From an uncultured Candidatus Saccharibacteria bacterium (lineage in GTDB: Bacteria; Patescibacteriota; Minisyncoccia; Sungbacterales; SURF-37), in contig CAYIKH010000001.1 in assembly GCA_964363965.1 (NCBI GenBank), forward strand, positions 727 through 64,726: a stretch of 64,000 bases of DNA, in the 5' to 3' direction. The translations under genes and the position numbers were made by a program. Each line of letters starts with the position of its first letter. Position 1 is the first letter of the stretch. Below, piece by piece: positions 2,929 to 43,636 of the stretch. The notes beneath the pieces are model-generated. The model ran no database searches, had not been told where the DNA came from, and saw nothing but the letters and a program-made list of their open reading frames with translations.

Positions 2929-3744
2929 ATGGATAGTCCCGAAAAACTCTTTTCGGTCAAGAACAAGGTCGTCATCATTACCGGCGGCGCAGGCATGCTG
3001 GGCATGGAGTATGCGACCGTTCTTGCTCGTGCCGGAGCGCGTGTGGTGCTCTTCGATATTGCCGATGAGCCCGTCCTCCGCGCCAAGGCCGCCGAGGTGC
3101 GTCGCCGCACCGGTCGCCGGCCCCTGGCGCTCCGCGTGGACATTACCGATGAGCGGGCGGCGAAGAATGCGGTGCGTCTGGTCATCCGGCGCTACGGGCG
3201 CGTTCACGCCCTTGTGAATAATGCGGCCATTAATCCTGAGGTGGAAGGCGGCAGCTCGCGTGCGCAGTTTTCCCCCTACGAACGCTATCCCATTGATCTC
3301 TGGCGCAAGGAGCTTGAAGTTGGGCTTACCGGCGCTTTCATCGTTACCCAGGCCGTGATTCCGGCTATGAAACGGCGGCGGGAAGGCGTCATCGTCAACA
3401 TTGGGTCCATCTACGGCGAGACCGCGCCCGACAACCGCATCTACCCGAAGGGGCAGTTTAAATCTATCGCCTATGCAACGGCGAAAGGCGCGATGCGGAA
3501 CTTCACCCGCGCGCTTGCCTCGTATTTGGCGCCGTTCCAGATCCGCGTGAACCAGCTGACGCCGGGCGGCGTCTGGGCCGGGCAGCCGCCGGCGTTCGTC
3601 AAGAAGTATTCAAGCCGCACCATGCTCGGGCGCATGGCCGAGCGCAATGATTTTAACGGCGCACTCCTCTTCCTCCTCTCCGATGCTTCGCGCTACATGA
3701 CCGGCGCCAATCTCGTGGTGGACGGCGGCTGGAGTGCGTGGTAA
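2929..3744 (+). CDS. Short-chain dehydrogenase/reductase (SDR) family oxidoreductase
   Basis: TGGAGMLG Rossmann motif, NNAAI, and the YATAKGA catalytic Y-x3-K. Confidence 0.8.
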   Translation: MDSPEKLFSVKNKVVIITGGAGMLGMEYATVLARAGARVVLFDIADEPVLRAKAAEVRRRTGRRPLALRVDITDERAAKNAVRLVIRRYGRVHALVNNAAINPEVEGGSSRAQFSPYERYPIDLWRKELEVGLTGAFIVTQAVIPAMKRRREGVIVNIGSIYGETAPDNRIYPKGQFKSIAYATAKGAMRNFTRALASYLAPFQIRVNQLTPGGVWAGQPPAFVKKYSSRTMLGRMAERNDFNGALLFLLSDASRYMTGANLVVDGGWSAW

Positions 3745-3886
3745 TACTTGTTATGTCAGAAAATTCGTCCAAAGTTCTCGGAATTGTCCCGCTGGATTTC
3801 ACCCGCGTGCCGATTCAGAAGCATTTCGTGGATTGAAGAGCGTCGGGCAATGTTCTCGGTGGTGATCCGAAGTTTCTGGCATCTCT

Positions 3887-4573
3887 ATGAAGTTTTCCTT
3901 GGTCATTCCGGCATATAATGAAGAGGAGAGTATCGGGGCGGCGGTGCGCGGTCTTCGGGATGCTCTCGGGCGCGTCGAGCATTCGTTCGAGATCATCGTG
4001 GTCAACAATGGTTCGACCGACGGGACTCCCCGCGTTCTCGAGGAGCTCCGAGCCGATGTTCCGGAGCTTGCGGTCGTGCGGGTAGACGTGAATCGCGGTT
4101 ACGGCAACGGGGTCATTGCTGGCCTCCGCGAAGCCCAAGGGGAAATTCTGGGTTGGGTGGATGCCGACAATCAGGTCGCGCCGGAAGACGTCGCGGCCGT
4201 ATATCGGGAAATCCTGCATGGGGGCGCTGATCTTGTCAAAGCCGTCCGGACGACGCGCCGTGAGTCGCGTTTCCGGAGGCTCCAGAGTGTTGTCTATAAT
4301 GCTATCTTCCGCATCCTTTTCGGCGGCAGATACCGCGATATCAACGCGAAACCGAAAATGTTTCGGCGCTCGCTTTGGGAGTCGCTCCACGTCACATCGC
4401 TTGATTTTTTCATCGATGCCGAGGTAATGATAAGGGTGATACGCGCTCGGCGTCAGATTCGGGAAGTCGAGGTATCGTGGGCGGCCCGCACCTCCGGCCG
4501 ATCGAGCGTGCAGCCGTCCGCGGCGGTCGAATTTTTGAAGAACTTGCTCCGCTATAAATTTTTTAGAGATTAA
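3887..4573 (+). CDS. GT2 glycosyltransferase, DPM1/GtrB-like polyprenyl-phosphate sugar synthase
   Basis: Begins SLVIPAYNEEESIGAAV... with a VNNGSTDGT DxD-region and a 228-aa architecture typical of Dpm1/ArnC-like enzymes. Confidence 0.75.
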   Translation: MKFSLVIPAYNEEESIGAAVRGLRDALGRVEHSFEIIVVNNGSTDGTPRVLEELRADVPELAVVRVDVNRGYGNGVIAGLREAQGEILGWVDADNQVAPEDVAAVYREILHGGADLVKAVRTTRRESRFRRLQSVVYNAIFRILFGGRYRDINAKPKMFRRSLWESLHVTSLDFFIDAEVMIRVIRARRQIREVEVSWAARTSGRSSVQPSAAVEFLKNLLRYKFFRD

Positions 4574-7720: not shown

Positions 7721-8647
7721 ATGGCCCAGTTAAAAATCGCAATTCTCGGAGCGAGCGGCATCGGAAGATTTCATTTCAGAGAGTTTGCGCGCGCGGGAGT
7801 CAAAGTCACCGCCATTCTCGGAAGCAGTTACGAAACCGCCGAGAGGACTGCCGTCATGCTCTCTTCGGAATTCGGCCTGCGTCCGAAAGCGTATTCGGAA
7901 TTGGGCGTCCTTATTGAAGCCGAGCGCCCGGATGCCGCGAGCGTTTGCACTCCTCCCGAACTTCACTATGACCAGGTAAAGATGTGCCTCGCGGCGGGAT
8001 TGCATGTTCTTTGCGAAAAGCCGTTTGTCCTTAACTCCGATGGCGATGCGAGCGGTCTCGCGACCGAGCTCGTTCGGTTGGCGAAGAAACGGGGGCGAGT
8101 CATTACGGTGAACACCCAATGGCCTTCCGTTTTACGGTACGTACAGCCGTTCGTTGATGTTTCCAAAATCCGGGACTTTTTCATGTATACCCAGCCGGGC
8201 GTCCGGGGGGCAGGCATATTGAGGGATCACCCGCCGCATGCGAACAGTATGCTGGTAAAACTCGTTCCGGATGGACGAGCGGAAGACATAGAATTTCTGG
8301 TATCTTCTCCAGAAGAGATGGATGTCAATTTCGAATATCGCGCGCGCGGCTCACGTTGCGCCGTCCGCTACAAATTCAAATTCAAAGCCGCGAGGCCCCG
8401 CGATCTTGAATTTTCCATCAACGGGGTTGCGTTCAAGCGGCATATCGGGGAAGGCTATAGCCAGAAACTCGTTACGGGTAAAACGGAAATTGATATCGAG
8501 GATCCGTTCAAAACTTCGATTGGAATGTTCGTTGGCGCCATCGAGGGGAGGAGTTCGCCATTGATCAGCACGCAAGAGATAATTGAAAATGTGCGGCTGC
8601 AGGACAGAATCATCAAGGCGTATGTAGCGGAAAAGGGCAAGCAGTAA
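7721..8647 (+). CDS. Gfo/Idh/MocA family NAD(P)-dependent oxidoreductase (candidate sugar 4-ketoreductase)
   Basis: The N-terminal Rossmann motif IAILGASGIGRFH is followed by LHVLCEKP. Confidence 0.75.
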   Translation: MAQLKIAILGASGIGRFHFREFARAGVKVTAILGSSYETAERTAVMLSSEFGLRPKAYSELGVLIEAERPDAASVCTPPELHYDQVKMCLAAGLHVLCEKPFVLNSDGDASGLATELVRLAKKRGRVITVNTQWPSVLRYVQPFVDVSKIRDFFMYTQPGVRGAGILRDHPPHANSMLVKLVPDGRAEDIEFLVSSPEEMDVNFEYRARGSRCAVRYKFKFKAARPRDLEFSINGVAFKRHIGEGYSQKLVTGKTEIDIEDPFKTSIGMFVGAIEGRSSPLISTQEIIENVRLQDRIIKAYVAEKGKQ

Positions 8648-8787: not shown

Positions 8788-10749
8788 TTGTTCATGTTTA
8801 CCCTGCTGATATTGAGTCTTTTTTTCGCCGCCACCCTTGCTTTCGGATGCGTTGTTGCCGCTGTTTTTTTGCCGAGCTCCGAACGGCGTTGGTACGTTGT
8901 GGCGCCGATCGTGCTCATTATTGGCCTGAACGGCTACGTAATGATCCTGAACCTCGTTGCATATTTGGTCCCTGTCCAGCGCGCGTTCTGGGTGGTGCTT
9001 ACGGGGATGAGTTTGGCCGCAGCGGCGGGATTGATGGCGATGCGGCGCCGGAAAACATCCCTGATTGCGCCGGATGACTTGAAACCTCGCCAACGGCAAT
9101 TCCTCGTGTTCACGACATTCGTTGTCATGCTCCTTGCCGGGTTCGTTTCCTACCTCACACTTGGAGATGATATCTATCTCGTGAATATGCCGCTTGCATC
9201 AACCATCAGCGAGGGAAACTTCCCCGTGCTCGATCCATCCGATCCGAGTTTTCGCGTCGCCTACCATTACGGGCCCGACCTGCTCATCGCGGCCCTTCAC
9301 CGTACGGCCCATATACCGCTCTGGCTCGGCTATGATATTCAAACCTTCCTTTTCATTGGTGCGGCGTTCCTCATGGCGTTTGCCCTCGCGCGTTCCGTTG
9401 TTTTGCGTTTCCGGAGCGCGTTCCTTGCCGCATTGCTGATGCTCTATGGGAGCGGCCTCGTCTGGATGAAGGGGTTCCACGGCATTGCCGTATTTTGGCA
9501 AAAATTAAGCGGCGGAAGCGCCGGCCCGGCCCCATGGAAATTCTTTGCCGACATGGCATTTCCTAATTTTGATTCGAGCATTGCGGCCACCACGAGCCAT
9601 ACCGTTATCATGGGCATGCCAATCGTCCTGCTCGTGTTGTATCTCTATAACCAGGCCATTGACGCCGAGCGCGATGCTTGGCTTCGGCCGACACTGCTTG
9701 CTGGCGTGCTTTACGGCTACACCGCTTTCATAGTCGAAACGCATTTCATCGTGATGTTCGCGGCATTTATCGGCATGCTGTTTCTCGAGGGAACGCGGTA
9801 CCTCTGGTCCGGGCGGCCTGCCGCTCGGCGCGATCAACTTCTGCGCCTTGCCGGCGTTACGGGTATTGTCATCGTCGTCGCCCTGCCCCTCGCATTTCTC
9901 CAGGGCGGGATACTCACGACCGTGAGCGATCCCGGCGCGACGCATCGATTCGAGCTGGTCAAACATTTTTGGAGCCAAGGCATTACCGATAAGCAGGTGC
10001 TTCCGTTCCGCTGGGCATTCTTCCAGGACTTCGGTTTGCCCCTTATCTTGTTTCTCCCCGCCCTTTATTTTTTCCGGAATGATCGGCGCGTTCAGTTCAT
10101 TGCGCTTATCGCCCTCGGAGCATTCCTGGTGCCGCTCCTTATCCGCTACACGCCATCACCCCGGGAAATGGAACGGCTTTTCGGTTTTGCGACACCGCTC
10201 TTTGCGTTTCTTGCCGGTCTTTTTCTTTCGGAGGTCGCTGCGGCATTCACGCTCAATCGTCATAGAAAAATGATCTCGTTCGCATTGCTTCTCCCCATCT
10301 TTGCCATGGTTGGCACCGCTCTTGCGGCCCAGGCCTTCGGTATTGCGTACCCGCTTGTGCGGCCCCAGGGCAGACATTATATGCTTGCCGCCGTTCCTCC
10401 CGAAGTTCCGGCAATTGACCAGAAGGCCTACGTCTGGATTCGGGAGCACACCATCCTTCAGGATTGGTTTTTCCCCTACAGTCAGGATTTTATCCGGGAA
10501 GTCGGGCGCTTCACTCCCGGGCCGTATTTTCCGGGCGTGACTCGGCCGAGTGTCATTACTGACTACGAGGAGGCCGTTCGTTCATGCAGTCGCGAGTCGT
10601 TTGCAAAACTCGGGGTTACCTACCTCTACGTTTCACCGCGGTTTCCGATCGCCGATTTTAAAATCCGGTGTCTGCCGAATCTTCACGCGACTCCGCTCTA
10701 TCAAGATGGTGTGGGCCCAGAAATGCGGAGCGTGTATCGGCTTGAATAA
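8788..10749 (+). CDS. Large polytopic membrane protein with C-terminal soluble domain; candidate GT-C-type glycosyltransferase
   Basis: 653 aa with more than 10 predicted hydrophobic helices, then a ~150-aa non-hydrophobic tail. No motif was confidently assigned. Confidence 0.45.
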   Translation: MFMFTLLILSLFFAATLAFGCVVAAVFLPSSERRWYVVAPIVLIIGLNGYVMILNLVAYLVPVQRAFWVVLTGMSLAAAAGLMAMRRRKTSLIAPDDLKPRQRQFLVFTTFVVMLLAGFVSYLTLGDDIYLVNMPLASTISEGNFPVLDPSDPSFRVAYHYGPDLLIAALHRTAHIPLWLGYDIQTFLFIGAAFLMAFALARSVVLRFRSAFLAALLMLYGSGLVWMKGFHGIAVFWQKLSGGSAGPAPWKFFADMAFPNFDSSIAATTSHTVIMGMPIVLLVLYLYNQAIDAERDAWLRPTLLAGVLYGYTAFIVETHFIVMFAAFIGMLFLEGTRYLWSGRPAARRDQLLRLAGVTGIVIVVALPLAFLQGGILTTVSDPGATHRFELVKHFWSQGITDKQVLPFRWAFFQDFGLPLILFLPALYFFRNDRRVQFIALIALGAFLVPLLIRYTPSPREMERLFGFATPLFAFLAGLFLSEVAAAFTLNRHRKMISFALLLPIFAMVGTALAAQAFGIAYPLVRPQGRHYMLAAVPPEVPAIDQKAYVWIREHTILQDWFFPYSQDFIREVGRFTPGPYFPGVTRPSVITDYEEAVRSCSRESFAKLGVTYLYVSPRFPIADFKIRCLPNLHATPLYQDGVGPEMRSVYRLE

Positions 10750-10905
10750 ATCAGCGAGAGGCTCAATAAAAAGAGCCGCGATCGTGCGGTTCGTGTTGGT
10801 CTGCGTCTGGCCGAGGGCCTTGGCTCCGTTACGATTGGCCCGGAGTGCGTTTCAGCTCGGAACGAGGAGGGGATCGGGATATGACCAGCGAGGAAATCGA
10901 GCATC

Positions 10906-11283
10906 TTGCCGAGTGGCTTAGGTATTATGGAGTTCCTGGCGTGCTACGCCTCGAGCTTATCGGTGGACGCCGCAAGGTTTGACAAGCTGGTCATAAATGT
11001 GGCTTTCGAGATTTCGCCGCCGCGCCTTGCCTGCAAAGCCCCGTCGCGGCTCTACGGCTTGAATCATTACAAAAAAGCGTTGAAAGTAGAGGGCGTTCGT
11101 CTTGTCCAGAGCCAGGAGGAATTGCTATTCTGGATTCATCGTTACCTTGATGATTCTGCTCTTGATAGGGAAGGGCGGCGGCGGCTTGTCCAGGCGCAGT
11201 GCTGGCAGACCGACGGCCGCGCCGTAGAGCGGATAGCCCGACGCATCCTGCGTGCTGCAGGTGTCATAACTCAAGCGTCATAA
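10906..11283 (+). pseudogene. 3' remnant of a TagF-like transferase paralogue
   Basis: The 125 aa align with the last ~125 residues of the proteins at 24722, 26128 and 36906 (for example YASSLSVDAARFDKLVINV and HYKKALKVEGVRLVQSQEELLFWIHRYLDDSALDREGRRRL match paralogue 2). No N-terminal ~330 aa is present upstream in any frame. Confidence 0.6.
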
Positions 11284-11302
11284 TAAGGGATGCGGACGCG
11301 TC

Positions 11303-13210
11303 ATGAACGCAATGTTTCAGTTGCGACTAAAATTTCCGTGGTGGTTGTGGCTGGCCGGCCTCGCTTTTTTGGTCGGCGCACTACACCTCGCGCCGAGCTT
11401 GTTCATCAAGGCCGCCATTGAGCGCATTGGGGGCTTGTATCTCCTTCCGCAAGTTGTCCATCCCACCCATTCCGACAGCGTCATGTGGTATGTTCCGGCG
11501 AGCCGCGAAGTGGCCGAAGGCCACCTCGTGCCATCGGACATCTATATTCCTACAAACAAGCGGCTTCCCTTTTTCCTCCCTCCGTTGCCGCTCATTTTCT
11601 TCGGCGCGCTCATCGCCCTTGCCGGAGATGCAAATTACGCCTACCTCGCGGCTTTGTTTGTATTTCCCGTAATCACGTTTTTCCTTTTCTATTGGCTGGG
11701 TCGGTTGTTCTTGGCATCGCGCCTTGGCAGCGCGGCGTTTGCCCTGGTCGGGACCTTAACGCCCGTGGCTCTCGCCTACCTGGGGCGAACCACGGAAACG
11801 CTGCAGCTTACCCCGCTCATAACCCTGAAGAGTTTTCTCCCGTTCGTCAGGACGCCCATTCCCGAACTCTATCTTTCGCGGATTACCGAGCCGCTTCTGA
11901 CCATTCCGCTCCTCATCCTGGGTTTCGGGTTTCTCTGGCGCTTTTGGATCCAGCCCTCGCCGCGGCGCGGGGCGCTCGCCGGCGGCGCGATGGCTTTGAC
12001 ACTCTACACGTATCTGCATTACTTTGCGTTCCTGGCGGGGTTCGGCGCAGTGCTCTTTTGTTTTTCGTTTGCGGTATCGCGCGAGCGCGCGAATCTCCGG
12101 GTATGGGCGATTTTCTTCGGCGCGATGGCCATCGGTATTCTGCCGTTTCTTTTCAATTACCTCGAACTCCGCGCTCTCCCGCAGTTCGGCGATTGGGCCG
12201 CTCGTTTGAGCGGGGCGTTTGAGCGCTGGCGCGGCATCCGCCTCTCGGCCTGGCGCGACTACATCCTCTACGCTATTCTCGCGATACCGCTGATACCGCT
12301 TTGGCGGCGCGACCGCAGATTGGCGATGTTCTTCGGGGCGGCTCTGGTTGCGATGGTGATGCTGTGGAATATTCAAATCGTCACCGGTTTTTCCATCATC
12401 CCGACGCACTGGCATAAGGCCTTTGGCGTCCCGCTCTATACCCTGGTGGCCGTTGAGCTCGCCTACGCGGCGGCCTCGATCAGCCAACATCCGCGTTGGC
12501 GCGTTAGGCGCCGGGCCATCGCGGCTGGTTTGACGGTTCTCCTCGTTTTCCTCGTTGCCAAGCGCATCATGAATGCCGCGGCTTACCTCTATCCCGACCG
12601 GCGTACCATGGCCGCCTTTTCGTTCCCAGCCGAGATTTACGATTCATGGCAGTGGCTGAATCAAAATGTTCCTTCCGAATCAGTGGTCCTCTCGACGTCC
12701 TATGTAACGTCGCTCTATCTCGCGGGTTATACGGACACGAATCACTACTTGCCGTTCGGCGACCTGACCCTGACTTCACGCCGCGATCTTGAGGAGCGAT
12801 TCCTTACCGCCCACAAGCTCTTCGGCGTTCCGGAAGAGCGGGTGCGCTTGCTCCTCCGCGGCAAGTACTATCCGCCCACGATATGCGATGTCGGCGGCGA
12901 GTGCGGCAACGAGCATAGCGAGCGAAATCTCCTGCGCGTGCCCCAGATGCTCTACAACGGCGCGTTCGATCCACGGCAGCACGGCCAGGATCAGCTTGAG
13001 CTTTCTTACGAGCCGCTGATTCCGCTTGCGGTGATTGATGATCTTATGGGACGCTACGAAAACGCCCGGCCCGATTGGAAGGATTTCCGGGGCGACTATG
13101 TCTACTATGGCCCGTGGGAGCGCGAGATTCATTCGGTCAACCTTAAGACCAATCCTCGCCTTGAGCTCTTGTATAATCGGGGCGGGGTTGAGATTTACAA
13201 GGTGAGGTAA
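11303..13210 (+). CDS. Large polytopic membrane protein with C-terminal soluble domain; candidate GT-C-type glycosyltransferase
   Basis: 635 aa with more than 10 hydrophobic helices and a C-terminal soluble domain. It sits next to the DPM1-like GT2. Confidence 0.45.
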   Translation: MNAMFQLRLKFPWWLWLAGLAFLVGALHLAPSLFIKAAIERIGGLYLLPQVVHPTHSDSVMWYVPASREVAEGHLVPSDIYIPTNKRLPFFLPPLPLIFFGALIALAGDANYAYLAALFVFPVITFFLFYWLGRLFLASRLGSAAFALVGTLTPVALAYLGRTTETLQLTPLITLKSFLPFVRTPIPELYLSRITEPLLTIPLLILGFGFLWRFWIQPSPRRGALAGGAMALTLYTYLHYFAFLAGFGAVLFCFSFAVSRERANLRVWAIFFGAMAIGILPFLFNYLELRALPQFGDWAARLSGAFERWRGIRLSAWRDYILYAILAIPLIPLWRRDRRLAMFFGAALVAMVMLWNIQIVTGFSIIPTHWHKAFGVPLYTLVAVELAYAAASISQHPRWRVRRRAIAAGLTVLLVFLVAKRIMNAAAYLYPDRRTMAAFSFPAEIYDSWQWLNQNVPSESVVLSTSYVTSLYLAGYTDTNHYLPFGDLTLTSRRDLEERFLTAHKLFGVPEERVRLLLRGKYYPPTICDVGGECGNEHSERNLLRVPQMLYNGAFDPRQHGQDQLELSYEPLIPLAVIDDLMGRYENARPDWKDFRGDYVYYGPWEREIHSVNLKTNPRLELLYNRGGVEIYKVR

Positions 13211-21757: not shown

Positions 21758-22747
21758 TTGATTACTATGACAAAACTCATTGCCGAGGTCTGTCAGAACC
21801 ATAAGGGGAACCGGGGGCTCTTGAAGGAGCTAATTTTTGCCGCAGCCGAAGCCGGCGCTGACATCGTGAAGGGCCAGGTTATTTTTTCCGATGACCTTAC
21901 CTACCGTGAACGCTTTGAAGGGGGAGTCGTGGAACATAATGGAGTTCGCAAGACCATCCAGCGTCCGTACGGCCCGGAGCGCGAACGGCTCTCCAAACTC
22001 GATCTTAACGAGGACGATTACCGCTTTTTTATTGAGGAGTGCTATCGCGCCGGAGTCCGGCCGATGCTTACCGTATTTTCGCGCAAGCGCATTCCCTTTG
22101 CGGCGTCCTTGCCGTGGCAGGGCGAGAAACTGTTTAAGGTGGCCAGCTACGATTGCGCGAGTTTCCCCATGCTCCGCGAACTGGCCGGATATTTCGATCG
22201 TCTCATCGTGTCCACCGGCGGAACGTTCGATGATGAAATCAAACAGGCCGCCGAAATTTTACGATCATCGGCCAAACCTTATGCGCTTCTACACTGCGTG
22301 ACCAGTTATCCCAATACTTTGGCCATGGCTAACCTGGCCCGTATCCGATGGCTGAAGCAGTTTGCGCCTGAGACGGGATGGTCGGATCATACCCTGGTCG
22401 AGCGTGACGGCATCAAGGCAGCCAAGGTCGCGATCATGCTCGGGGCTGATTACGTTGAACGACACTTCACCGTCCTCCCGTCAGAGGAGACAAAGGACGG
22501 ACCGGTTTCGATCACTCCACAGCTCCTGGCCGACCTGAAAGCATTCAGCCGCCTTAGTGGGGAGGAACAGCGCGAAGCCGTAAAGCAAGACATCCCGGAG
22601 TGGCCGATCATGATCGGAGCTTCCGAACGCGAGCTCATCCATACCGAGATGCTTAACCGCGATTACTACCGCGGTCGTTTCGCCAGCCGTGTCGGTGAGG
22701 AATGGGTGTATAACTGGGAGGATGGGTTGGAGAGAGAGAAGGTTTGA
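21758..22747 (+). CDS. NeuB-family (PEP-condensing ulosonic acid synthase-like) enzyme lacking SAF domain
   Basis: IAEVCQNHKGNRGLLKELIFAAAEAGADIVKGQ parallels the NeuB N-terminus. LHCVTSYP and WSDHT parallel the NeuB HC..YP / FSDHS motifs. Confidence 0.5.
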   Translation: MITMTKLIAEVCQNHKGNRGLLKELIFAAAEAGADIVKGQVIFSDDLTYRERFEGGVVEHNGVRKTIQRPYGPERERLSKLDLNEDDYRFFIEECYRAGVRPMLTVFSRKRIPFAASLPWQGEKLFKVASYDCASFPMLRELAGYFDRLIVSTGGTFDDEIKQAAEILRSSAKPYALLHCVTSYPNTLAMANLARIRWLKQFAPETGWSDHTLVERDGIKAAKVAIMLGADYVERHFTVLPSEETKDGPVSITPQLLADLKAFSRLSGEEQREAVKQDIPEWPIMIGASERELIHTEMLNRDYYRGRFASRVGEEWVYNWEDGLEREKV

Positions 22748-23993: not shown

Positions 23994-24725
23994 ATGTTTA
24001 ACAACACCCACATTCTCGCGATCATCCCGGCCCGTGGCGGTTCGAAGGGTATTCTCCGGAAGAACCTCCGGTTAGTGGCTGGATTGCCGCTAGTTGTCCA
24101 TAGCATTCTTGCCGCCAAAGCTTCACGCTTAATTGAGCGCACTATTGTCTCTACTGACGACGAGGAGATCGCCGAGGTGGCGCGGAGCTACGGGGCCGAA
24201 GTTCCTTTTCTCCGGCCGGCGGATCTGGCTCTCGACACCACTCCGGATTTCCCGGTTTTCGAGCACTGTCTGAATTGGCTTGAGGAGAGTGAGGAGTACC
24301 GGCCCGATATCGTGGTTCATCTCCGGCCCACCGGCCCCCTTCGCACCGGGTTAGAAATCGACGAGGCGGTCGAGCTCCTGGAGCGTCATCCCGAGGCCGA
24401 CTCGGTCCGCTCGGTGCACGAGCCGGATAAATCTCCCTACAAAATGTGGCGGCTCGAAGGTTCGTACATGGTGCCTTTTTTACGTGATCCCGACTACCCC
24501 GAGCACTATAACGCCCCCCGCCAACTCCTGCCCAAGGTCTACGCTACTAATGCCAACATCGGGGTGGTCCGCTACCGGACACTCCGGGAGAAAGGTTCGG
24601 TCATAGGAGAGCGCGTTTTGCCCTATCCTGTCTCCGGGCCGCACGTGGACATTGATACTGAACTCGATCTTGAACTCGCCGAGCTTCTCTTTCGGAAGCG
24701 CGCGCGGGAGGGCCGCGGGTATTGA
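23994..24725 (+). CDS. CMP-ulosonic acid / acylneuraminate cytidylyltransferase family (CTP_transf_3)
   Basis: AIIPARGGSKGILRKN...VSTDDEEIA is the canonical NeuA/KdsB-family N-terminus. Confidence 0.7.
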   Translation: MFNNTHILAIIPARGGSKGILRKNLRLVAGLPLVVHSILAAKASRLIERTIVSTDDEEIAEVARSYGAEVPFLRPADLALDTTPDFPVFEHCLNWLEESEEYRPDIVVHLRPTGPLRTGLEIDEAVELLERHPEADSVRSVHEPDKSPYKMWRLEGSYMVPFLRDPDYPEHYNAPRQLLPKVYATNANIGVVRYRTLREKGSVIGERVLPYPVSGPHVDIDTELDLELAELLFRKRAREGRGY

Positions 24726-26131
24726 TGCAGCGGCGTTTTATGTCGACGGTCTTCCTCGCCCTAGCCAACTCCAGCCACTACTCGGGTGTCCTCCGGACGC
24801 GCTTTATTGCTGAACTCGCCCGGCACTTTCGCGTCCTCGTTCTCACTCCGCAGCTGGATGATGCGATCGTCAAACGCGATCGCTATTTTCGGAATGGAGG
24901 CGTTTCTTACCATCGTTTCCCTATTACCTATCCGCGTTTCTGGAATGTTTTGGACAGGTATCTGCGCGTGCCGCTTGTCTCCTCCTTCGACCACCTCACC
25001 TACATGCGCTATTTCTATCAGCGGTCCCACGCGCCGATCCGGAAACTCCTCATGGCCTCCCGACGGCTCTTCCCGGCATTCCTCTTCACCACCGATCGGT
25101 TGACGCTCTGGGAGGTGCGTTGGGCTCCGCAGGGTAAGGTACTAGCCGAGCTCTTTCGCACTCACACCCCGATCCTCGTCCTCACCGCCACCCCTGGATT
25201 CACGCCCTTCGAAGCCGAAATCATCGTCGCGGCTAAGCGCTTAGGGGTTCAGACCGCGGCTATCAGCATCAACTACGACAACTTGACTTCCAACGGCAAG
25301 CTCATCCGTAAAACCGACTATCTCGCCGTCTGGAACAATCTCATGCGGCGCGAAGCTAAAGTTTTGCATCGCTATTCGGATGAGCGTTTAGGCCTAGTCG
25401 GGTGTCTGCGCTTTGACCATTATTTTTATGATGAGGAGAATCCGCGTTTCCCCTCGCGCGAAGATTTTCTGAAAGCCAAGGGCCTTGATCCCGGCCGGAA
25501 AACACTGGTCTTTGCCGGCCCGACCCCAACCAATTACCCTCCGCGGCGTGAGTTTATTGCCGAGCTCTTGCGTCTTAAACGCGATGGGCACCTTGACGGC
25601 GATCCAAATATCCTGGTTCGCATTCATCCTAACGATAGTCTGGCAACGTATCGCGAGTTCCTTGGGATGCCGGGCATGCATTTTGAAGGCGCAAGTCGCA
25701 ACGTGCGTCTGGATGGCGGCAAGGGGGTGAGCATGGACGAGGAAGACCTTCTGAACCTTACCGCCACCCTTAAATACGCTGATGTTGTTTTGAATTTCGC
25801 CTCGACCGTGGCCATGGAGGCAGCTATCTTTGACCGGCCGGTCATCAATGTCGCCTTTCCCGACTACCGCCGAATCGTGTATCAATATGAATACAATAAA
25901 CACATCGTTGATACTGGCGGCGTGCGTTTAGCCCGAAGCCCGGAGGAGCTTAGTGAACTAGTAAACATGTATTTCCGCAACCCGGCTCTTGATCGCGAAG
26001 CGCGGGCCAAACTCCTTGAATTTTTTATCCCGTTTCGCGACGGCCGGAGCTGGGCGCGAACTATGGACTTCATTGTGAAAATTACCAAGCCCGGTAGTGA
26101 GAGCTTCTCTCTACTACCGGGCAAGCCGTGA
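24722..26131 (+). CDS. TagF-like CDP-polyol phosphotransferase family protein (GT-B), paralogue 1
   Basis: The C-terminus VVLNFASTVAMEAAIFDRPVINVAFPDYRR...YEYNKHIVDTGGVRLARSPEEL parallels the TagF motif region (..ITDYSS...KP.I....D.EEY...YDYE...GP...T.EEL). Confidence 0.55.
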   Translation: MMQRRFMSTVFLALANSSHYSGVLRTRFIAELARHFRVLVLTPQLDDAIVKRDRYFRNGGVSYHRFPITYPRFWNVLDRYLRVPLVSSFDHLTYMRYFYQRSHAPIRKLLMASRRLFPAFLFTTDRLTLWEVRWAPQGKVLAELFRTHTPILVLTATPGFTPFEAEIIVAAKRLGVQTAAISINYDNLTSNGKLIRKTDYLAVWNNLMRREAKVLHRYSDERLGLVGCLRFDHYFYDEENPRFPSREDFLKAKGLDPGRKTLVFAGPTPTNYPPRREFIAELLRLKRDGHLDGDPNILVRIHPNDSLATYREFLGMPGMHFEGASRNVRLDGGKGVSMDEEDLLNLTATLKYADVVLNFASTVAMEAAIFDRPVINVAFPDYRRIVYQYEYNKHIVDTGGVRLARSPEELSELVNMYFRNPALDREARAKLLEFFIPFRDGRSWARTMDFIVKITKPGSESFSLLPGKP

Positions 26132-27501
26132 AGATGAGAACCGTCCTGATCACAATCTATCAGGCCGTGGAGGCCAAAAACATTCTTCGGACTGATATCA
26201 TACGCTCTTTACTCGCCGAGCCGGATGTCCGTGCAGTATGCCTTACTAAATTTAAGGAGCGGGCTGATTATTACCGGCAGGAGATTCCGCATGAGCGGAT
26301 AATTTATGATTACTGCGACCAGGAACCTGGCGGGGCGCTGGAGCGATACTTCAGCGCTTTAAAGTTTCATCTTATCCGCACGGCCACTACTGATCTCAGG
26401 CGCCGCATGAATTTTGAGGAATCTGGAAATTATTTTTCTTATCTCATTGGTCGAGCTCTAAACTTCCTGCTGGCCCGTGGATCAATACGGAGGCTGGCGC
26501 GGTTTTTGGATTATCACCTAGTTTCTGATTCGGGGTTTGGCGATATTCTTAGGCGCTATCAGCCGGATGTTGTTTTTTTTGCTCATCTTTTTGATGATGC
26601 TGAAATTGCGCTTCTTCGCCAGGCCAAAAAGCGCGGAATCCCAACAGTCGGCTTTATTAATTCATGGGATAAATTGACGGCCCGTTCGGCTGTGCGCCTG
26701 CTTCCGGACAGGCTGGTGGTTTATAACGACATTGTAAAGCAAGAGGCCGTGGAGCACGCCGACATGCCGCCGGAGAAGATCGTGGTTTCGGGCATACCGC
26801 AGTATGATCAATATTTTACCCCAGGACCCGTTTCACGACAGGAATTTTGCGCCAAGGCCGGACTTGATCCAAAACGCGCAATTGTGTTATTGGCGCCCAT
26901 GGGTCGGGCTTTTTCCAACTCGGATTGGGAGATGATTGATATGCTTCATGAAATTATTTCTCCAAGCCAAGGTCTGCCGTTATCCCAGCTTTTGGTGCGC
27001 TTCCAGCCCAATGACTTTATTGATGAGGTTGAAATTTCGCGCCGGCCATGGCTGAGATATTCATTGCCCGGGATTCGCTTTGGAACCAGGCGCGGAGGAG
27101 ACTGGGACATGAGATTTGAAGAGCTAACTCATCTTAATGATACCCTTTTTCATTCCAGTCTCCTGGTTTCCTATGCTTCCAGCATGAGCGTGGATGCGGC
27201 CATATTCGGCAAGCCGGTGATCAACATTGATTTTGAATTGAAGCCCGGGGAGTCCATGTCAAAATCGCCAACTTTTTATTACCAGACCGATCATTATAAA
27301 AAAGCCCTTTTAACCGGCGGCATCAGGTTAGTGAAGAGTCGCGATGAGCTGATACAATGGCTCCGGCGTTACCTCCAAGATCCGAGCCTTGATCGTGAAG
27401 GACGGGAGCGGTTGGTTAAAGAGCAGTGCGGTTTAGTTGACGGTAAGGCCGGAGAGCGAATCGCCAGAGCCATTTTCGGGGTATTACAAGTATTACAATA
27501 A
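26128..27501 (+). CDS. TagF-like CDP-polyol phosphotransferase family protein, paralogue 2
   Basis: VSYASSMSVDAAIFGKPVINIDF...YYQTDHYKKALLTGGIRLVKSRDEL. It overlaps paralogue 1 by ATGA. Confidence 0.55.
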   Translation: MKMRTVLITIYQAVEAKNILRTDIIRSLLAEPDVRAVCLTKFKERADYYRQEIPHERIIYDYCDQEPGGALERYFSALKFHLIRTATTDLRRRMNFEESGNYFSYLIGRALNFLLARGSIRRLARFLDYHLVSDSGFGDILRRYQPDVVFFAHLFDDAEIALLRQAKKRGIPTVGFINSWDKLTARSAVRLLPDRLVVYNDIVKQEAVEHADMPPEKIVVSGIPQYDQYFTPGPVSRQEFCAKAGLDPKRAIVLLAPMGRAFSNSDWEMIDMLHEIISPSQGLPLSQLLVRFQPNDFIDEVEISRRPWLRYSLPGIRFGTRRGGDWDMRFEELTHLNDTLFHSSLLVSYASSMSVDAAIFGKPVINIDFELKPGESMSKSPTFYYQTDHYKKALLTGGIRLVKSRDELIQWLRRYLQDPSLDREGRERLVKEQCGLVDGKAGERIARAIFGVLQVLQ

Positions 27502-35784: not shown

Positions 35785-36909
35785 ATGAAAATCAAAAGAC
35801 TCCTCGTGGTCCCGTGCGACACGCTGGTACAAGGAAAGGAGGTTGCCAGGCGAACCTCCTTTTTTGGCGAGGCGGCCTCGTTCTTGGCTATCAAGCTTGG
35901 CCGGAGCGGCTTTAGCTATGACGGCGAGATACAGTTTTACGGCGATTTTCCGGCTCTGCTCGGCAAAGAACACGTGTTTGTCTACGGACGATTCCATCCC
36001 CATCTTTATGTGAAGCACGTTCCAAAAAACTGCCCTTACCCCTCCTGCCACGGCCTGCCGAAAGGGACGGCGATAGGATCAAAGGATCTTAGTGCGGTCA
36101 TGAGCCAGGTGGATGCGGTGTTTGTTTCCTTGCGCGGCGGCGAGAGGGCCCAGGAGGTGCTCGCCGAGGCTGGGCGGCGCGGCATTCCCAGAGCGCTCTT
36201 TGATTTTGAGGATTATCCGGAAATCTACGGCCGGGCGCTTGCCGCAAAAGAACTCACGGCTGGCTATGCGCACGGCAAGGACTTTGAGCTTTATTTCAAG
36301 AAAGAATTGCCGCTCGGCTTTCGCACGGATACCATCTTGCCGCTTGCGCCAAGTCCGGTGCGGCCCGAATCTTATCGCTTTCCGAACGCTAACAAGCGTC
36401 ATGCTATTTTTTATAGCGGCCGTTCGCGTCCGGGCTGTCAGGCGGATCGCGAGGAGGCTGTGGCGCTTCTCGGGAAGTTTCCCGGCGGCGAATTTATTGA
36501 CCACGATCGGCGGCGCCGGAGCTTTTTGACCACGCATGAATACTGGCGGCATCTTGCCGAAAGCCGCATGGCTCTTTCGCCGTCCGGCAAGTCCTGGGAT
36601 TCTTACCGGCACTGCGAGGTCGGGCTTGCTCCGCAAACTCTCCTCATTGCGCCCAAACCCTTCATCGAAACTGCTGGTCCGCAGCTTATAGATGGCCGAA
36701 ATGCAATTCTCTACGACACCGAGTTTCGCGACGGGAAATATCATCTTAAAGACGCCGGCGCGCTTGCCGATGCGGTCCGTTATTATCTCAGCCACGACGA
36801 CGAGAGGAAAAAAATTGCCGATGCGTGGCAGCGCGATGTCCTTTCGGGACATACGGTATTAGGCCGCTCGTGCTATATACTCGAGAGTATGGAGCGAGCC
36901 TTCTCATGA
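35785..36909 (+). CDS. Hypothetical protein, possible GT-B-like glycosyltransferase
   Basis: 374 aa. The C-terminal region (RMALSPSGKSWDSYRHCEVGLAPQTLLIAP) is reminiscent of GT-B donor-binding domains. No firm assignment. Confidence 0.3.
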   Translation: MKIKRLLVVPCDTLVQGKEVARRTSFFGEAASFLAIKLGRSGFSYDGEIQFYGDFPALLGKEHVFVYGRFHPHLYVKHVPKNCPYPSCHGLPKGTAIGSKDLSAVMSQVDAVFVSLRGGERAQEVLAEAGRRGIPRALFDFEDYPEIYGRALAAKELTAGYAHGKDFELYFKKELPLGFRTDTILPLAPSPVRPESYRFPNANKRHAIFYSGRSRPGCQADREEAVALLGKFPGGEFIDHDRRRRSFLTTHEYWRHLAESRMALSPSGKSWDSYRHCEVGLAPQTLLIAPKPFIETAGPQLIDGRNAILYDTEFRDGKYHLKDAGALADAVRYYLSHDDERKKIADAWQRDVLSGHTVLGRSCYILESMERAFS

Positions 36910-38243
36910 AAACTGTATTCATCACCTGCATCCGCGGCATTATATCGCGGAACATCCTTTCGACCGCGGCTTTTGAGTTACTGGCCTCGAGGAACGATTT
37001 GCGTCTGGTTATCATTGTGCCGGAAAGCCGGACTGTGGCCATGAAAAAAGAGTTCGGCGGAGAAAATGTGTTTATCGAGGGCGTCCCCAACCCGCCGCCG
37101 AAAGGCCTTGGCCGGTTTCTTTGGGTCCTGGCTACCAATCTCCTAGCCACCCGCACCCGCGAAGTCCAGCGTCGAGCCAAGTTCGAGTATGATAAAAACC
37201 TCTTTGATTACCTGGCCTCGCGGCTGGTGGGCTTCATCGGCCGCTTCCGCGCGCTGCGACGGCTTTTCCGCCTTCTTTACGGCCTGTTTGATTCCGGCTC
37301 GGAGTTTGACAACTTGTTCAAGCGCTATCAGCCTTCGCTCCTTTTTGGCACCGATGTTTACGAGCTTGCCGATGTCCGGATTATGAGGGCCGCAAGGCGA
37401 TTGGGCGTAACAACCATAGGCATGGTGAGATCGTGGGATAACCCGACATCCAAAACCATTTTGAATTTTATTCCCGATCATGTTGTGGTTAATGCCGAGC
37501 GCATCCGCGCCGAGGCCATTGAATACGGCGATGTTCCGGCCAATCGCATATCCATCTCTGGTGTGCCGCATTATGATTGCTATCTAGACACATCTTTAAG
37601 AACGCCGCGCGATGAATTCTGCCGCCGAGTAGGTCTTGATCCAGCTAAGCCCTTTATGCTTTTTACACCGCCGGCGGACACTTATTTACAGCATGATCCG
37701 GTTGCTCCAGTTGTATTGAAGGCGCTTGAAACCAGCCGCATACAGGTATTGGTGAGAATGCCGCTTGTTGGCAAGACGGAACTCGCCGGTATGATTCCGC
37801 CGCCCAATGCTGTTTTTGATATGCCGTCAAACTCTCCGGATTTCGTTGATGTGCATCTTGACCGCGCGGCTGATCGGCACCTTGCCGATTCAATCTATCA
37901 CAGCGCCCTGGTCATCACCTGGGCTTCAACCATGGTTATTGACGCTGCGGCTTTTGACAAACCCATAATCCTTGTCGGTTTTGATGCTTCGCCCCGACCC
38001 TACGGCCGGAGCATCCAGCAATACTACGATTATGACCACCAGCGGGCCATAATTGAGAGTCGGGGAGTTAGGTTTGCGAGAACCCCGGAGGAGTTAAGTC
38101 GTATGGCTAAACTTTATCTGGACGATTCCACTCTTGATAAGATCGGACGCGAAAAAATCCGCCAGGATTACTGCGGAGATCTTGATGGTCATGACGGAGA
38201 GCGGCTGGGAAAGTTCTTATTGGAGAGGCTTGACGCTTTGTAG
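36906..38243 (+). CDS. TagF-like CDP-polyol phosphotransferase family protein, paralogue 3
   Basis: LVITWASTMVIDAAAFDKPIILVGFDASPRPY...YYDYDHQRAIIESRGVRFARTPEEL. ATGA overlap with the upstream gene. Confidence 0.55.
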   Translation: MKTVFITCIRGIISRNILSTAAFELLASRNDLRLVIIVPESRTVAMKKEFGGENVFIEGVPNPPPKGLGRFLWVLATNLLATRTREVQRRAKFEYDKNLFDYLASRLVGFIGRFRALRRLFRLLYGLFDSGSEFDNLFKRYQPSLLFGTDVYELADVRIMRAARRLGVTTIGMVRSWDNPTSKTILNFIPDHVVVNAERIRAEAIEYGDVPANRISISGVPHYDCYLDTSLRTPRDEFCRRVGLDPAKPFMLFTPPADTYLQHDPVAPVVLKALETSRIQVLVRMPLVGKTELAGMIPPPNAVFDMPSNSPDFVDVHLDRAADRHLADSIYHSALVITWASTMVIDAAAFDKPIILVGFDASPRPYGRSIQQYYDYDHQRAIIESRGVRFARTPEELSRMAKLYLDDSTLDKIGREKIRQDYCGDLDGHDGERLGKFLLERLDAL

Positions 38244-40541: not shown

Positions 40542-41678
40542 ATGATTGCCACGAAACCCGCCCCCACCGCTTCCCTCATGGACCTGATTGCCTCAGGTCA
40601 TGTTTTTGTGGTGGCCGAGATCGGAAAGAATTTCATCCAAACCCAGGAAGAACGGCCGATCGCAGAATATTTAGAAAACGCCAAAGCTCTGGTGAAGGCC
40701 GCGCATGAAGCCGGGGCTGATGCGGTGAAATTCCAGACCCACAATGTTGAGGATGAGCAGTTGAATATCCTTGTGGTCTCGCCGCATTTTAAGGGTGTGG
40801 ATCGCTATTCGTGGTTGACGAGAAACACCAAAGCCACGCCGCTTGAACACTTCTGGCGCCCGCTCAAGACCTATTGCGACGAACTCGGTATAATTTTTCA
40901 CTCAACGCCGATGTCGCGGGGCGCGGCTCAAAAACTGAATGAGCTTGGCGTTGAACTCTGGAAAGTCGGCTCCGGAGATATTTTGGATTTTGTTGCGCTT
41001 GATTTTCTTACCTCCACCGGCAAACCCATTATCATGTCTTCGGGGATGTCCACAATAGAAGAGCTTGATCAGGCCATTGATTTTCTCAAGCGTCGGGAGG
41101 CATCAGTAATTTTGCTCCACTGCGTCTCAAAGTATCCCTGCCCACCGGAGCATCTCAACCTTGCGACCATCGGGTTTTTGCGTGAGCGCTACGGGATTCC
41201 AGTCGGTTTCTCCGACCACTCTATTGGCATTGATTCGGCTCTGGCCGCCGTTGCCCTTGGCGCTCAAGTCATTGAAAAACATTTTTCATTCTCCCGGGAC
41301 CTCTGGGGTGCGGATCACAAGGTTTCAATGACGCCGGAGGAATTGAAGGCGCTGGTTAGCGGCATCCGTGAACTTGAACGCGACCCGTCAAAAAAGGCCG
41401 CCTATTTGGAGAAGGACAGCGTGAAAGCCGGCATGGGTTCCGGCACAAAAGTCCTGCAGGAAGATGAAGCTGTTTTCCGGCCTTATTTCCGAAAATCCCT
41501 CATGGCTGGCCGCGATATCCCGGCCGGCACGGTGATTACCGCTGATATGCTCTATGCCATGCGTCCTCAGCAATACGCCGGAGGATTGCCGTCGGAGGAG
41601 TACGGGAACGTCCTCGGCAAAGTGACCAAGGTAGGCTTGAAGAAGTATGATCCAATTCGGTGGGAGAATTTCAGCTAG
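40542..41678 (+). CDS. neuB: N-acylneuraminate (nonulosonic acid) synthase
   Basis: AEIGKNF...AGADAVKFQTH, LHCVSKYPCPPE, VGFSDHSIG and a C-terminal SAF-like domain. Confidence 0.8.
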   Translation: MIATKPAPTASLMDLIASGHVFVVAEIGKNFIQTQEERPIAEYLENAKALVKAAHEAGADAVKFQTHNVEDEQLNILVVSPHFKGVDRYSWLTRNTKATPLEHFWRPLKTYCDELGIIFHSTPMSRGAAQKLNELGVELWKVGSGDILDFVALDFLTSTGKPIIMSSGMSTIEELDQAIDFLKRREASVILLHCVSKYPCPPEHLNLATIGFLRERYGIPVGFSDHSIGIDSALAAVALGAQVIEKHFSFSRDLWGADHKVSMTPEELKALVSGIRELERDPSKKAAYLEKDSVKAGMGSGTKVLQEDEAVFRPYFRKSLMAGRDIPAGTVITADMLYAMRPQQYAGGLPSEEYGNVLGKVTKVGLKKYDPIRWENFS

Positions 41679-41681
41679 ATT

Positions 41682-42923
41682 ATGGTGCTCGTAAAAACGC
41701 GCAAACAAAAGGTTAAGGAGTTTTTAAAGGAAATTCCGATAAAGACCGGTCTTATTCCGCCACGGCAGAAGCGGAAGGTCTGTTTTATTATTACCAACCG
41801 CATCCATTACGCCCGCCAGGAAATTCTTTTGAAGCAGCTTAGAGGCGATCCTGATTTTGAGTTGCAGTTGATTGTTGGTGGAGCCGCGCTTTTGGAAAAA
41901 TATAGCGAGGTTCCGGCGGCTCTGGCCCGCCGCGGGTTTGAAATCCAGGAGACAATGCTTAATCTCATTGAAGGCGGGAATCACGTGGCCATGGCGAAGA
42001 CCGCCGGCCTGGCCGTGCTCGAGCTCGCCAACACCTTCCAGAAGCTGAATCCGGACATTGTTTTGATCCGCGGCGACCGGTTTGAACAGCTGGCCGCGGC
42101 CATGACCGCCGCCTACCTGAACAAGACCGTGGCCCATATTGAGGGCGGGGACGTGACCGGTACTATTGACGAGAGCGTGAGGCATGCTATCACCAAACTC
42201 GCTCATATCCACTTTGTGACCAATGATGATGCCTACCGCCGGGTGTTGCAGATGGGCGAAAATCCGGCCTATGTTTTTCACGTAGGCTCGCCGGATCTTG
42301 AATTCGCGGCCGCGGTGAAACGAAAACCGGATCAGGCCATGATGAATCGGATTGGTGTTGGCGGGCACATTGACTTTTCAAAGCCCTATATCCTGGTCAT
42401 CCAGCACCCGGTGACCAGCGAAACCGAGAACCTGGAAAACGTTATTAAAACGCTTCAGGCCGTGAGCAGCCTTGGGGTGCAAGCGCTTTGGTTCTGGCCC
42501 AATCCCGATGCCGGCACGGATGAAATTTCAAAAGGCATACGGCGCTTTCGTGAGCATACCCCCAGCCCACATATTCGCTTTGTCGTTGACATCCATCCTC
42601 GGGATTTTGTCGCGCTTCTGGGCGCATCGGCATGCCTGGTTGGCAATTCTTCATCCGGCATCAAGGAAGCATCGTTTTTCGGCGTGCCGGTGGTCAATAT
42701 CGGAACGCGCCAGCAGGGGAGGACGCGGGCCGAGAACGTGATGGATGTGGGTTATGATACTGATGGGGTCAAACGCGCCATATTCTTGCAGATGGGCCAC
42801 GGTCTTTATTCGCCTTCGCACCTCTACTACAAAACCGAGACCTCCAAGCACATCCGCAAAGTGTTGAAGACCGTGCCTCTTTACACTCAAAAGCGGTTTC
42901 ACGACCAATCTTTTGTCGCATGA
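41682..42923 (+). CDS. neuC: UDP-N-acetylglucosamine 2-epimerase (hydrolysing), NeuC-like
   Basis: KVCFIITNRIHYAR...HIEGGDVTGTIDESVRHAITKLAHIHF. Confidence 0.75.
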   Translation: MVLVKTRKQKVKEFLKEIPIKTGLIPPRQKRKVCFIITNRIHYARQEILLKQLRGDPDFELQLIVGGAALLEKYSEVPAALARRGFEIQETMLNLIEGGNHVAMAKTAGLAVLELANTFQKLNPDIVLIRGDRFEQLAAAMTAAYLNKTVAHIEGGDVTGTIDESVRHAITKLAHIHFVTNDDAYRRVLQMGENPAYVFHVGSPDLEFAAAVKRKPDQAMMNRIGVGGHIDFSKPYILVIQHPVTSETENLENVIKTLQAVSSLGVQALWFWPNPDAGTDEISKGIRRFREHTPSPHIRFVVDIHPRDFVALLGASACLVGNSSSGIKEASFFGVPVVNIGTRQQGRTRAENVMDVGYDTDGVKRAIFLQMGHGLYSPSHLYYKTETSKHIRKVLKTVPLYTQKRFHDQSFVA

Positions 42924-43636
42924 AAATACTAGGGGTTATAACTGCAAGAGGAGGCTCGAAGTCTATTCCTAGGAAAAACATCAGGGAACTCGCCGGTAAG
43001 CCGCTCATCGCTTGGACCATCGAGGCGGCCAAGGAATCCGGCGTTTTCGACCGCATTATTCTCTCAACCGATGACCCAGAGATTGCCGAGGTGGGACGCA
43101 AGTGGGGGATTGATGTCCCATTCATGCGTCCGGCTGAACTAGCCGAGGACACGACCCCGCATCTTCCAGTGATGCAGCATGCGGTCACGTGGTTGAAAGA
43201 ACAGGAGGGTTACGAGCCGGATTTCGTTGCCATTCTTCAGCCGACTGCGCCGCTCCGCCAGGCTTTTCATCTCCGTGAGGCCGTGGAGCTCTTAAGGAAA
43301 ACCGGCGCCGATTCAGTGGTCAGCATGGTGGAGATTCCCGGGCACTTCAGCCCGTATTGGGCGGTCGAAGTTGACGAGAACGGTTTGGGCACGCTTCTCG
43401 TCTCGGGTGAGCCGATTAAAAAGCGTATCCCGCGTCGCCAGTCCCTACCCAAGGCCTATGCGCATTCAGGCGCGATTTATTTATTCCGCACTGGTTTGCT
43501 GTTTGATCCGGCCGAGCCGAATTTCTACGGGGATAAAGTCGCGGCCTACGTGATGGAAGATAAATACAACGTCAACATTGACGGCCCCGAGGATTGGGAA
43601 CGCGCCGAAATTGCCGTCAAGAAACTTAGTAGCTAG
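42920..43636 (+). CDS. neuA: CMP-N-acylneuraminate (nonulosonic acid) cytidylyltransferase
   Basis: GVITARGGSKSIPRKN...LSTDDPEIA; overlaps neuC by ATGA. Confidence 0.75.
   Translation: MKILGVITARGGSKSIPRKNIRELAGKPLIAWTIEAAKESGVFDRIILSTDDPEIAEVGRKWGIDVPFMRPAELAEDTTPHLPVMQHAVTWLKEQEGYEPDFVAILQPTAPLRQAFHLREAVELLRKTGADSVVSMVEIPGHFSPYWAVEVDENGLGTLLVSGEPIKKRIPRRQSLPKAYAHSGAIYLFRTGLLFDPAEPNFYGDKVAAYVMEDKYNVNIDGPEDWERAEIAVKKLSS

Follow-up and report, generated by a model that had tools for sequence, protein, structure and literature searches.

A probable 3′ relic of a TagF-like glycosyltransferase gene at a strain-variable junction in a surface-glycan locus of a groundwater Patescibacterium

An open reading frame (ORF) of 125 codons lies between the genes for two large membrane proteins in a surface-glycan locus of an uncultured Candidatus Saccharibacteria bacterium, and the question it raises is whether it is a gene or what is left of one. 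The source is a Patescibacteria metagenome-assembled genome (MAG) from Hainich groundwater well H43 (GenBank assembly GCA_964363965.1, contig CAYIKH010000001.1, positions 727 to 64,726 of the forward strand); background to the Hainich metagenomes is found in PMC8672522. In the following, "the window" is this whole stretch of 64,000 nucleotides (nt), its intact TagF-like genes are named TagF-A, TagF-B and TagF-C, and the membrane-protein genes on either side of the ORF are called mem1 and mem2. Sequence comparisons point to positions 10797-11283 being a non-functional relic, the 3′ end of a fourth TagF-B-type gene of the GT-B class, situated at a junction of strain-level exchange; we put the probability of this reading at about 0.9. 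In kind the feature is ordinary: part of a gene left behind at a point where a surface-glycan locus is mosaic.

BLASTP comparison of the ORF (10906-11283) with the intact TagF-like proteins of the window reveals 59 identical residues of 106 with TagF-B (56%; E = 3e-37), 37% identity over 103 amino acids with TagF-C (E = 1e-19) and 34% over 103 amino acids with TagF-A (E = 5e-13). The similarity is therefore real and far beyond chance. It covers the last ~105-117 residues of each protein, close to the C-terminal ~125 residues named in a preliminary description of this DNA. The ORF contains the nucleotide-sugar-binding motif region CYASSLSVDAARFDKLVINV and the C-terminal helices; the motifs quoted in that description are present, except that the terminal block reads AVERIAR and not GERIAR.

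The bounds first given, 10906-11283, enclose only the downstream piece of the remnant. A tblastn search reveals a second collinear segment in another frame, 10812-10919, which corresponds to residues 305-340 of the TagF-B protein (58% identity); with the TagF-B of a related locus, L014, as query it widens to 10797-10925 (residues 298-340, 58%). The alignment of the DNA with the resident TagF-B gene, which had been proposed as a check, shows a 1-nt gap at the frame switch. When one T is removed from AGGTATTATGG (10925/10926), the two segments fuse into 156-161 collinear codons with a spacing exactly as in the intact homologues. The first ~7-9 residues of the 125-amino-acid ORF (MPSGLGI..) are out-of-frame junk. 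What survives are residues ~298-457 of an enzyme of ~455 amino acids, that is, ~160 codons or the last ~35% of the gene. The features concerned, all on the forward strand, are as follows.

10797-10925, + strand: 5′ part of the pseudogene, sharing its frame with the ORF at 10845; residues ~298-340 of a TagF-B-type enzyme (..RGPWLRYDWPGVRFSSERGGDRDMTSEEIEHLAEWLRY)
10925-10926, + strand: frameshift, a one-base insertion (the extra T in TATTATG), with ATG 10927 directly after it
10906-11283, + strand: 125-codon ORF with a TTG start; from 10927 onward it forms the 3′ part of the pseudogene, residues ~341-457
10750-10796, + strand: left junction, 47 nt from the mem1 stop to the first recognisable codon of the remnant, without TagF-like homology
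8788-10749, + strand: mem1, the upstream large membrane protein (651-653 amino acids, no Pfam match), intact; right end of the conserved left block
11303-13210, + strand: mem2, the downstream large membrane protein (635 amino acids, no Pfam match); travels with the GT2 gene at 13228
24722-26131, + strand: TagF-A, intact paralogue
26128-27501, + strand: TagF-B, intact resident paralogue, the closest relative of the remnant within the window (53-56%)
36906-38243, + strand: TagF-C, intact paralogue

The N-terminal 65% of the enzyme (residues 1-297) has no significant tblastn match in any frame of 9500-10796, which upholds the earlier statement that nothing upstream encodes the N-terminal two-thirds. 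It had also been suggested that the fragment might turn out to be the end of a longer gene interrupted by a frameshift or sequencing error. Base correction adds only ~43 homologous codons, and the corrected frame is then closed by the TAA at 10767-10769, shortly after the mem1 stop (TAA, 10747-49); correction therefore rescues no gene. Full-length members of the family, as listed among the 920 library representatives found at E ≤ 0.001, measure ~450-460 amino acids, so that the homology of the remnant is only partial and the remainder is missing from all frames. No RNA family was detected by an Rfam scan of 10500-11500, and a promoter and terminator consensus scan of 10400-11600 gave nothing above shuffled sequences.

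An AlphaFold model of the TagF-B protein (mean predicted local distance difference test, pLDDT, 94) has a GT-B fold. On this 457-residue model the remnant corresponds to residues 298-457, comprising the second half of the C-terminal Rossmann domain and the terminal helices, and lacks both the N-domain and the first beta-alpha-beta unit of the C-domain. The complete GT-B architecture, with two Rossmann-like domains and an active-site cleft between them, is not retained. Any N-terminal catalytic residue is necessarily absent; for the TagF/TarL active site, the title of PDB entry 8va1 names H300 of TarL, the catalytic histidine. Judged by the model, a product consisting of half a Rossmann domain would have no enzymatic role.

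Compared with its own clade, the remnant is decayed. Of 40 columns without variation among 13 intact TagF-B genes it deviates at 7, the intact genes themselves at 0-3; the changed residues are E3A, R7G, W27R, T40W, P64L, G98E and G143V. Tajima relative-rate tests assign 23-29 unique changes to the remnant lineage and 6-11 to the intact partner (p = 0.0004-0.008), so that amino-acid changes are about three times more numerous than on intact relatives and selective constraint is relaxed relative to the intact homologues. Synonymous sites are saturated between the remnant and every intact homologue, which makes the ratio of nonsynonymous to synonymous divergence (dN/dS) unusable for these comparisons.

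The lesions recur in independent assemblies. Contigs L001 (1068 nt, from a different filter fraction) and L002 (18.9 kb), derived from other samples of the same well, are 99.8% identical to the window without gaps and carry the same truncation and the same extra T at 10925/6, from which we conclude that the remnant is not an artefact of assembly or sequencing. The 5′ junction is also found, up to 10779, in L081, a contig from Logan run SRR22388272, which belongs to a different study. The mem1 gene of L081 has 96.7% nucleotide identity to that of the window (95% when compared as a gene product; mem1 of L082 is 73% identical). Immediately after the shared junction L081 has a 258-nt deletion removing window positions 10780-11037, and what remains of its remnant exhibits further deletions of 8 and 20 nt and a CAG>TAG nonsense codon. 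Its mem2 is reduced to a stub ORF of 29 codons, ~25-28 of them homologous, beyond which lie unrelated DNA and then a TagF-A gene of the L011/L014 type. Over the 189 nt of remnant that L081 retains, its divergence from the window is 8.5% (dN 0.074), which is at or above the dS of mem1 (0.064); mem1 itself has no indels and a dN of 0.023. The G>E and G>V changes at conserved glycines are present in the window and absent from L081, and must therefore have arisen after the shared truncation.

A third state is seen in L003, a contig from the same well that begins at window position 11140. Its 144 nt of remnant sequence depart from the window at 14 positions, a 2-nt deletion among them, compared with only 7 over the 5372 nt that follow (Fisher p = 4e-18); the divergence thus jumps 80-fold exactly at the border of the remnant and mem2. 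The window with L001 and L002, L003, and L081 represent three allelic states of one scar. Taken with the truncation, the frameshift and the relaxed constraint, these additional lesions in sister strains confirm that the ORF is part of the remnant of a TagF-like gene.

L081 also contains, at positions 2366-2490, an AT-rich element of ~125 nt with perfect 17-nt inverted repeats at its ends (CCCCGTTAGAAGTCAGC / GCTGACTTCTAACGGGG) and a predicted RNA fold of -46 kcal/mol (z = -3.6). It sits exactly where the homology to mem2 ends, before the TagF-A gene, and is absent from the window; it could be a junction element resembling a miniature inverted-repeat transposable element.

Comparison with relatives shows that the scar separates two blocks of different behaviour. 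The left block (GT2, NTP-transferase, epimerase, C-methyltransferase, GFO/IDH/MocA oxidoreductase and mem1) keeps its gene order in L082, with 77% nucleotide identity, and there a methyltransferase gene follows 22 nt after mem1. The right block (mem2, GT2, methyltransferases and epimerases) is conserved in L005 and L007 and also, to judge from a listing without DNA, in the P0162 contig; its upstream neighbours vary. Breakpoints between strains fall at ~10780, at 11283-11303 and at ~11385. Together with the L081 and L003 comparisons this bears out the proposal of a footprint of gene turnover and recombination. The same proposal extended the recombination-active zone over the whole of 8788-13210, which is too wide: the active zone is the junction, 10750-~11385, and mem1 and mem2 are both intact and conserved. 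The three allelic states and the sharp divergence steps at the edges of the scar show that the surface-glycan locus is mosaic at the strain level, with whole modules gained and lost. No TagF stump was found upstream of mem2 in the closer relatives L005, L006 and L007, and no internal partial TagF copy outside the window population among 50 related metagenomic TagF-B loci. The flanking direct repeats that the preliminary description had asked about did not appear beyond 14-17-mers at chance level, nor did other repeats bracketing the remnant beyond imperfect 14-25-nt matches, likewise at chance level, and no mobile-element signatures were found flanking the window copy.

These data would fit the following course of events. 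A fourth TagF-B-type gene would once have been located directly upstream of the gene for the 635-residue membrane protein mem2. A deletion or cassette replacement, with its left end just after the mem1 stop and its right end inside the enzyme gene, would then have removed codons 1 to ~297. Since then the stump has drifted, acquiring the 1-nt insertion and losing clade-invariant residues, and in related strains deletions, a second frameshift and a nonsense codon are eroding it still more; these lesions are directly visible. It now divides the conserved left block, made up of mem1 and sugar-nucleotide genes, from a right part that varies, and it is here that co-occurring strains have lost or exchanged DNA. 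We infer from the position of the mem2 start, 19 nt past the stop of the remnant, a former TagF-B-then-mem2 pair, and in L004 (fused in frame) and L067 an intact TagF-like gene does lie directly upstream of a mem2 homologue.

Several observations weigh against this reconstruction. The TagF-then-mem2 order occurs in only 2 of ~70 related loci, and the reverse, mem2 followed by TagF, in four (L042, L072, L076 and L077); the ancestral order is for this reason inferred rather than demonstrated. When the remnant is placed in a wide-family alignment of 101 members, it shows 6 mismatches at 34 conserved columns and the intact members average 6.5, so that by this measure it is no more deviant than they are. 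The word "decayed" is thus justified within the clade, and against the wide family the decay is mild, the 99%-conserved proline of KPVIN being missing. In the window population, moreover, nothing interrupts the 125-codon ORF, its TTG at 10906 is preceded by a GAGGA motif 11 nt away, and both single-nucleotide polymorphisms (SNPs) that distinguish the window from L001/L002 within the ORF are synonymous (n = 2, not significant); as counter-evidence these last three points are weak.

As to where the remnant came from, the sequences leave two possibilities: a fourth paralogue of old standing, or foreign DNA. An exhaustive HMMER search of a library of 1.8 billion representatives identified the resident TagF-B as the closest protein, and a word-indexed search with the reconstructed 156-residue remnant returned only the remnant itself and one match of 38%. 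Among the 50 metagenomic TagF-B loci, however, that of L014, from Hainich well H51, is closer (61% versus 53% for the resident TagF-B). In neighbour-joining bootstraps the remnant groups with L014 in 63%, lies basal to the clade in 20% and joins the resident TagF-B in 1%.

The alternative that survives best is a variant of our explanation which differs only in origin: a block from an L014-like donor, extending from inside TagF-B through mem2, GT2 and the methyltransferases, would have been acquired horizontally, and the remnant would be its hitch-hiking 5′ edge. The closest relative does belong to a different Hainich organism, and downstream of its TagF-B a hydrophobic ORF begins; the mem2-GT2-methyltransferase block is kept as a unit beneath variable upstream neighbours, and the divergence step of L003 at the border of the remnant and mem2 is sharp. 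An identity of 61% is nevertheless far from that of a recent donor, the grouping with L014 is moderately supported with long-branch effects likely, the L014 contig ends before a downstream gene can be identified, and deletion in situ accounts for the same data. We consider such a transfer possible and somewhat doubtful. A more speculative idea, which we think unlikely on the whole, is that the interval from the mem1 stop through the TagF stump to the mem2 start is a preferred crossover site for glycan-cassette swaps among co-occurring strains, with conserved TagF 3′ ends as homology anchors; the stump would then be a scar of ongoing diversification of nonulosonic-acid glycans in these episymbionts, possibly driven by phages or hosts.

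The resident TagF-B, being the closest protein both in the library and in the window (56% over 106 amino acids), might also suggest that the remnant is a recent partial duplicate of this gene, produced by recombination within the locus. This is very improbable. Nucleotide identity between the two is 54% and third-position identity 37%, and the saturation of synonymous sites against every intact homologue shows that the remnant is not a recent copy of 26128-27501. The better match to L014, an organism other than the host, and the 1% bootstrap value tell against descent from any resident paralogue. Moreover, as the resident TagF-B is 64-67% identical to its orthologue in L007, the remnant must have split off before those two diverged.

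Equally hard to sustain is the idea that the ORF encodes a small protein with a function, in which the C-terminal subdomain of the TagF-like fold would stand alone and act, for example, as a regulator or as a partner of the neighbouring membrane proteins. The frame is open in three assemblies and preceded by a plausible ribosome-binding motif, its two intra-population SNPs are silent, and several family members of 105-160 amino acids exist among the library representatives; several of these short members have no Met start, however, for which reason they look like contig-end fragments. L081 lacks the start and the initial 40% of the ORF and has an in-frame stop as well, and the 2-nt deletion of L003 falls within the ORF, so that these two strains have largely refuted the idea already. 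The loss of clade-invariant W, P and G residues and the restriction to half of a Rossmann domain point the same way. An assembly chimera or a sequencing-error frameshift in a single MAG, conceivable for a metagenome-assembled contig, can practically be dismissed, because the junctions and the extra T recur in L001 and L002, from other filter fractions or replicates, and the 5′ junction in the unrelated run.

The "hypothetical protein" of 118-125 amino acids that public records give at this position should be marked as a pseudogene fragment. The comparison of these loci affords a view of strain-level cassette turnover in ultra-small groundwater bacteria of the candidate phyla radiation (CPR), and the junction is a convenient marker for strain haplotypes in the Hainich time series.

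Strain-level variation of modules is well known in the capsule and O-antigen loci of pathogens, and pneumococcal cps and enterobacterial O-antigen clusters also carry truncated gene remnants. A comparable case is the truncated galE2 remnant in region D′, which flanks the capsule island of Neisseria meningitidis (PMC5349592). There too, a glycan locus has an inactivated partial copy of one of its genes at the point where conserved DNA meets exchangeable DNA, it retains an intact paralogue elsewhere, and strains differ beyond the junction. Unlike galE2, the window remnant belongs to an uncultured groundwater Patescibacterium, has no flanking insertion sequence or long repeat, and is not a near-identical duplicate of a resident gene, its synonymous sites being saturated.

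The label "TagF-like" is a fair one at the level of fold and family. The Pfam family PF04464 (Glyphos_transf; threshold 22.1 bits) comprises the TagF/TarL polyol-phosphate transferases (PDB 3l7i, TagF; 8va1, TarL), and two of the three paralogues score above its threshold (TagF-B 37.2 bits, TagF-A 27.5 bits). TagF-C (16.6 bits) falls below it, as does the remnant ORF (16.2 bits, E = 0.005), which matches only profile positions 317-366 of 367. The motif D-x-L-x-x-S-x-L-L-x-S-Y-x-S-S...F-x-K-P of TagF/TarL is present in the window paralogues, and the remnant keeps it apart from the change P>L. In other respects the window family differs from these enzymes. Its sequence similarity to them is marginal, a nine-sequence profile finding only TarL in the PDB (E = 0.003, across the motif region kept by the remnant); by fold, UDP-N-acetylglucosamine (UDP-GlcNAc) 2-epimerases and NeuC score equally or higher, and a Foldseek search with the TagF-B model ranks UDP-GlcNAc 2-epimerases and GT4 enzymes first; and the remnant, below the Pfam threshold, has lost two-thirds of the protein.

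Among NCBIfam models the intact paralogues have sub-threshold matches to TarL/TarF and to the BFO_1060 glycosyltransferase family (NF046086, cut-off 200 bits), the latter at 64.5, 61.3 and 24.5 bits; a search of NF046086 with the remnant gave no match. The matching part is the N-terminal half (E = 1e-17 for TagF-A and TagF-B, 1e-5 for TagF-C). BFO_1060 is homologous to proteins that Tannerella forsythia needs in order to add pseudaminic or legionaminic acid (PMC5420450); BFO_1060 and Tanf_01245 are candidate transferases of these acids, and the Tannerella proteins possess a TagB-type domain. Like the Tannerella locus, that of the window has genes for NeuB and CMP-sugar synthetase, and this, with the likeness to BFO_1060, makes it plausible that the intact TagF-like enzymes act as nonulosonic-acid transferases. 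The window paralogues differ in scoring 24-64 bits, far under 200, and in matching the profile only in part. Nothing on TagF-like enzymes or nonulosonic acids was found in searches of the literature on Patescibacteria/CPR.

The window contains two genes for NeuB-type synthases (21758-22747 and 40542-41678) and two for CMP-sugar synthetases of the CTP_transf_3 type (23994-24725 and 42920-43636). The second set is 82-86% identical to that of L004, and the first is only 28-45% identical to the second; this low identity suggests that the locus may encode two different nonulosonic-acid pathways. Natural fusions occur in the TagF-like family (P0012, 897 amino acids; P0039, 962; P0011, 623; P0014, 795), some of them with two TagF-like modules and one with a GT2-like N-terminal domain joined to a TagF-B-type module.

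The proteins encoded by mem1 and mem2 have no match in Pfam or NCBIfam. They were considered as tandem paralogues and this was rejected, the relationship being undetectable (BLASTP E = 0.1). The AlphaFold model of mem2 (pLDDT 55) is too poor for a structure search; as a single-protein query of genome contigs mem2 found nothing, and an alignment query found only relatives of 27-34% identity. Across Patescibacteria, unannotated polytopic families of ~620-660 amino acids, resembling mem1 or mem2, often adjoin TagF-like GT-B genes in either order, and a GT2 gene of ~250 codons usually lies beside the mem2 homologues. In L083 a TagF-like gene directly precedes a mem1 homologue, and this adjacency, together with those in L004, L067, L042, L072, L076 and L077, indicates that TagF-like genes and these membrane proteins are habitual neighbours in the phylum. 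The recurrent arrangement suggests that TagF-like enzymes, membrane proteins and GT2 form a functional module, possibly one in which a lipid-linked sugar donor is paired with a GT-C-like transferase.

In L004 (1243-4543) the TagF-B gene continues without a frame break into its mem2 homologue and takes in about the first 160 codons of it (P0015, 615 amino acids); the remainder of mem2 is annotated as a gene of its own, overlapping the first, at 3077-4543. Either the fusion is real and mem2 has been split as well, or the L004 assembly contains a frameshift. L005 carries at 8349-8606, after the GT2 gene that follows its mem2 orthologue, a second mem2-like paralogue (45% over 88 amino acids) that runs to the contig end, and tandem pairs of mem2-like genes occur in L067 and L071. 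The window and L002 show 41 differences over 18.9 kb, and 12 of them cluster in ~100 nt close to the 3′ end of mem1 (10252-10352), which may represent a small recombination tract or a hypervariable loop.
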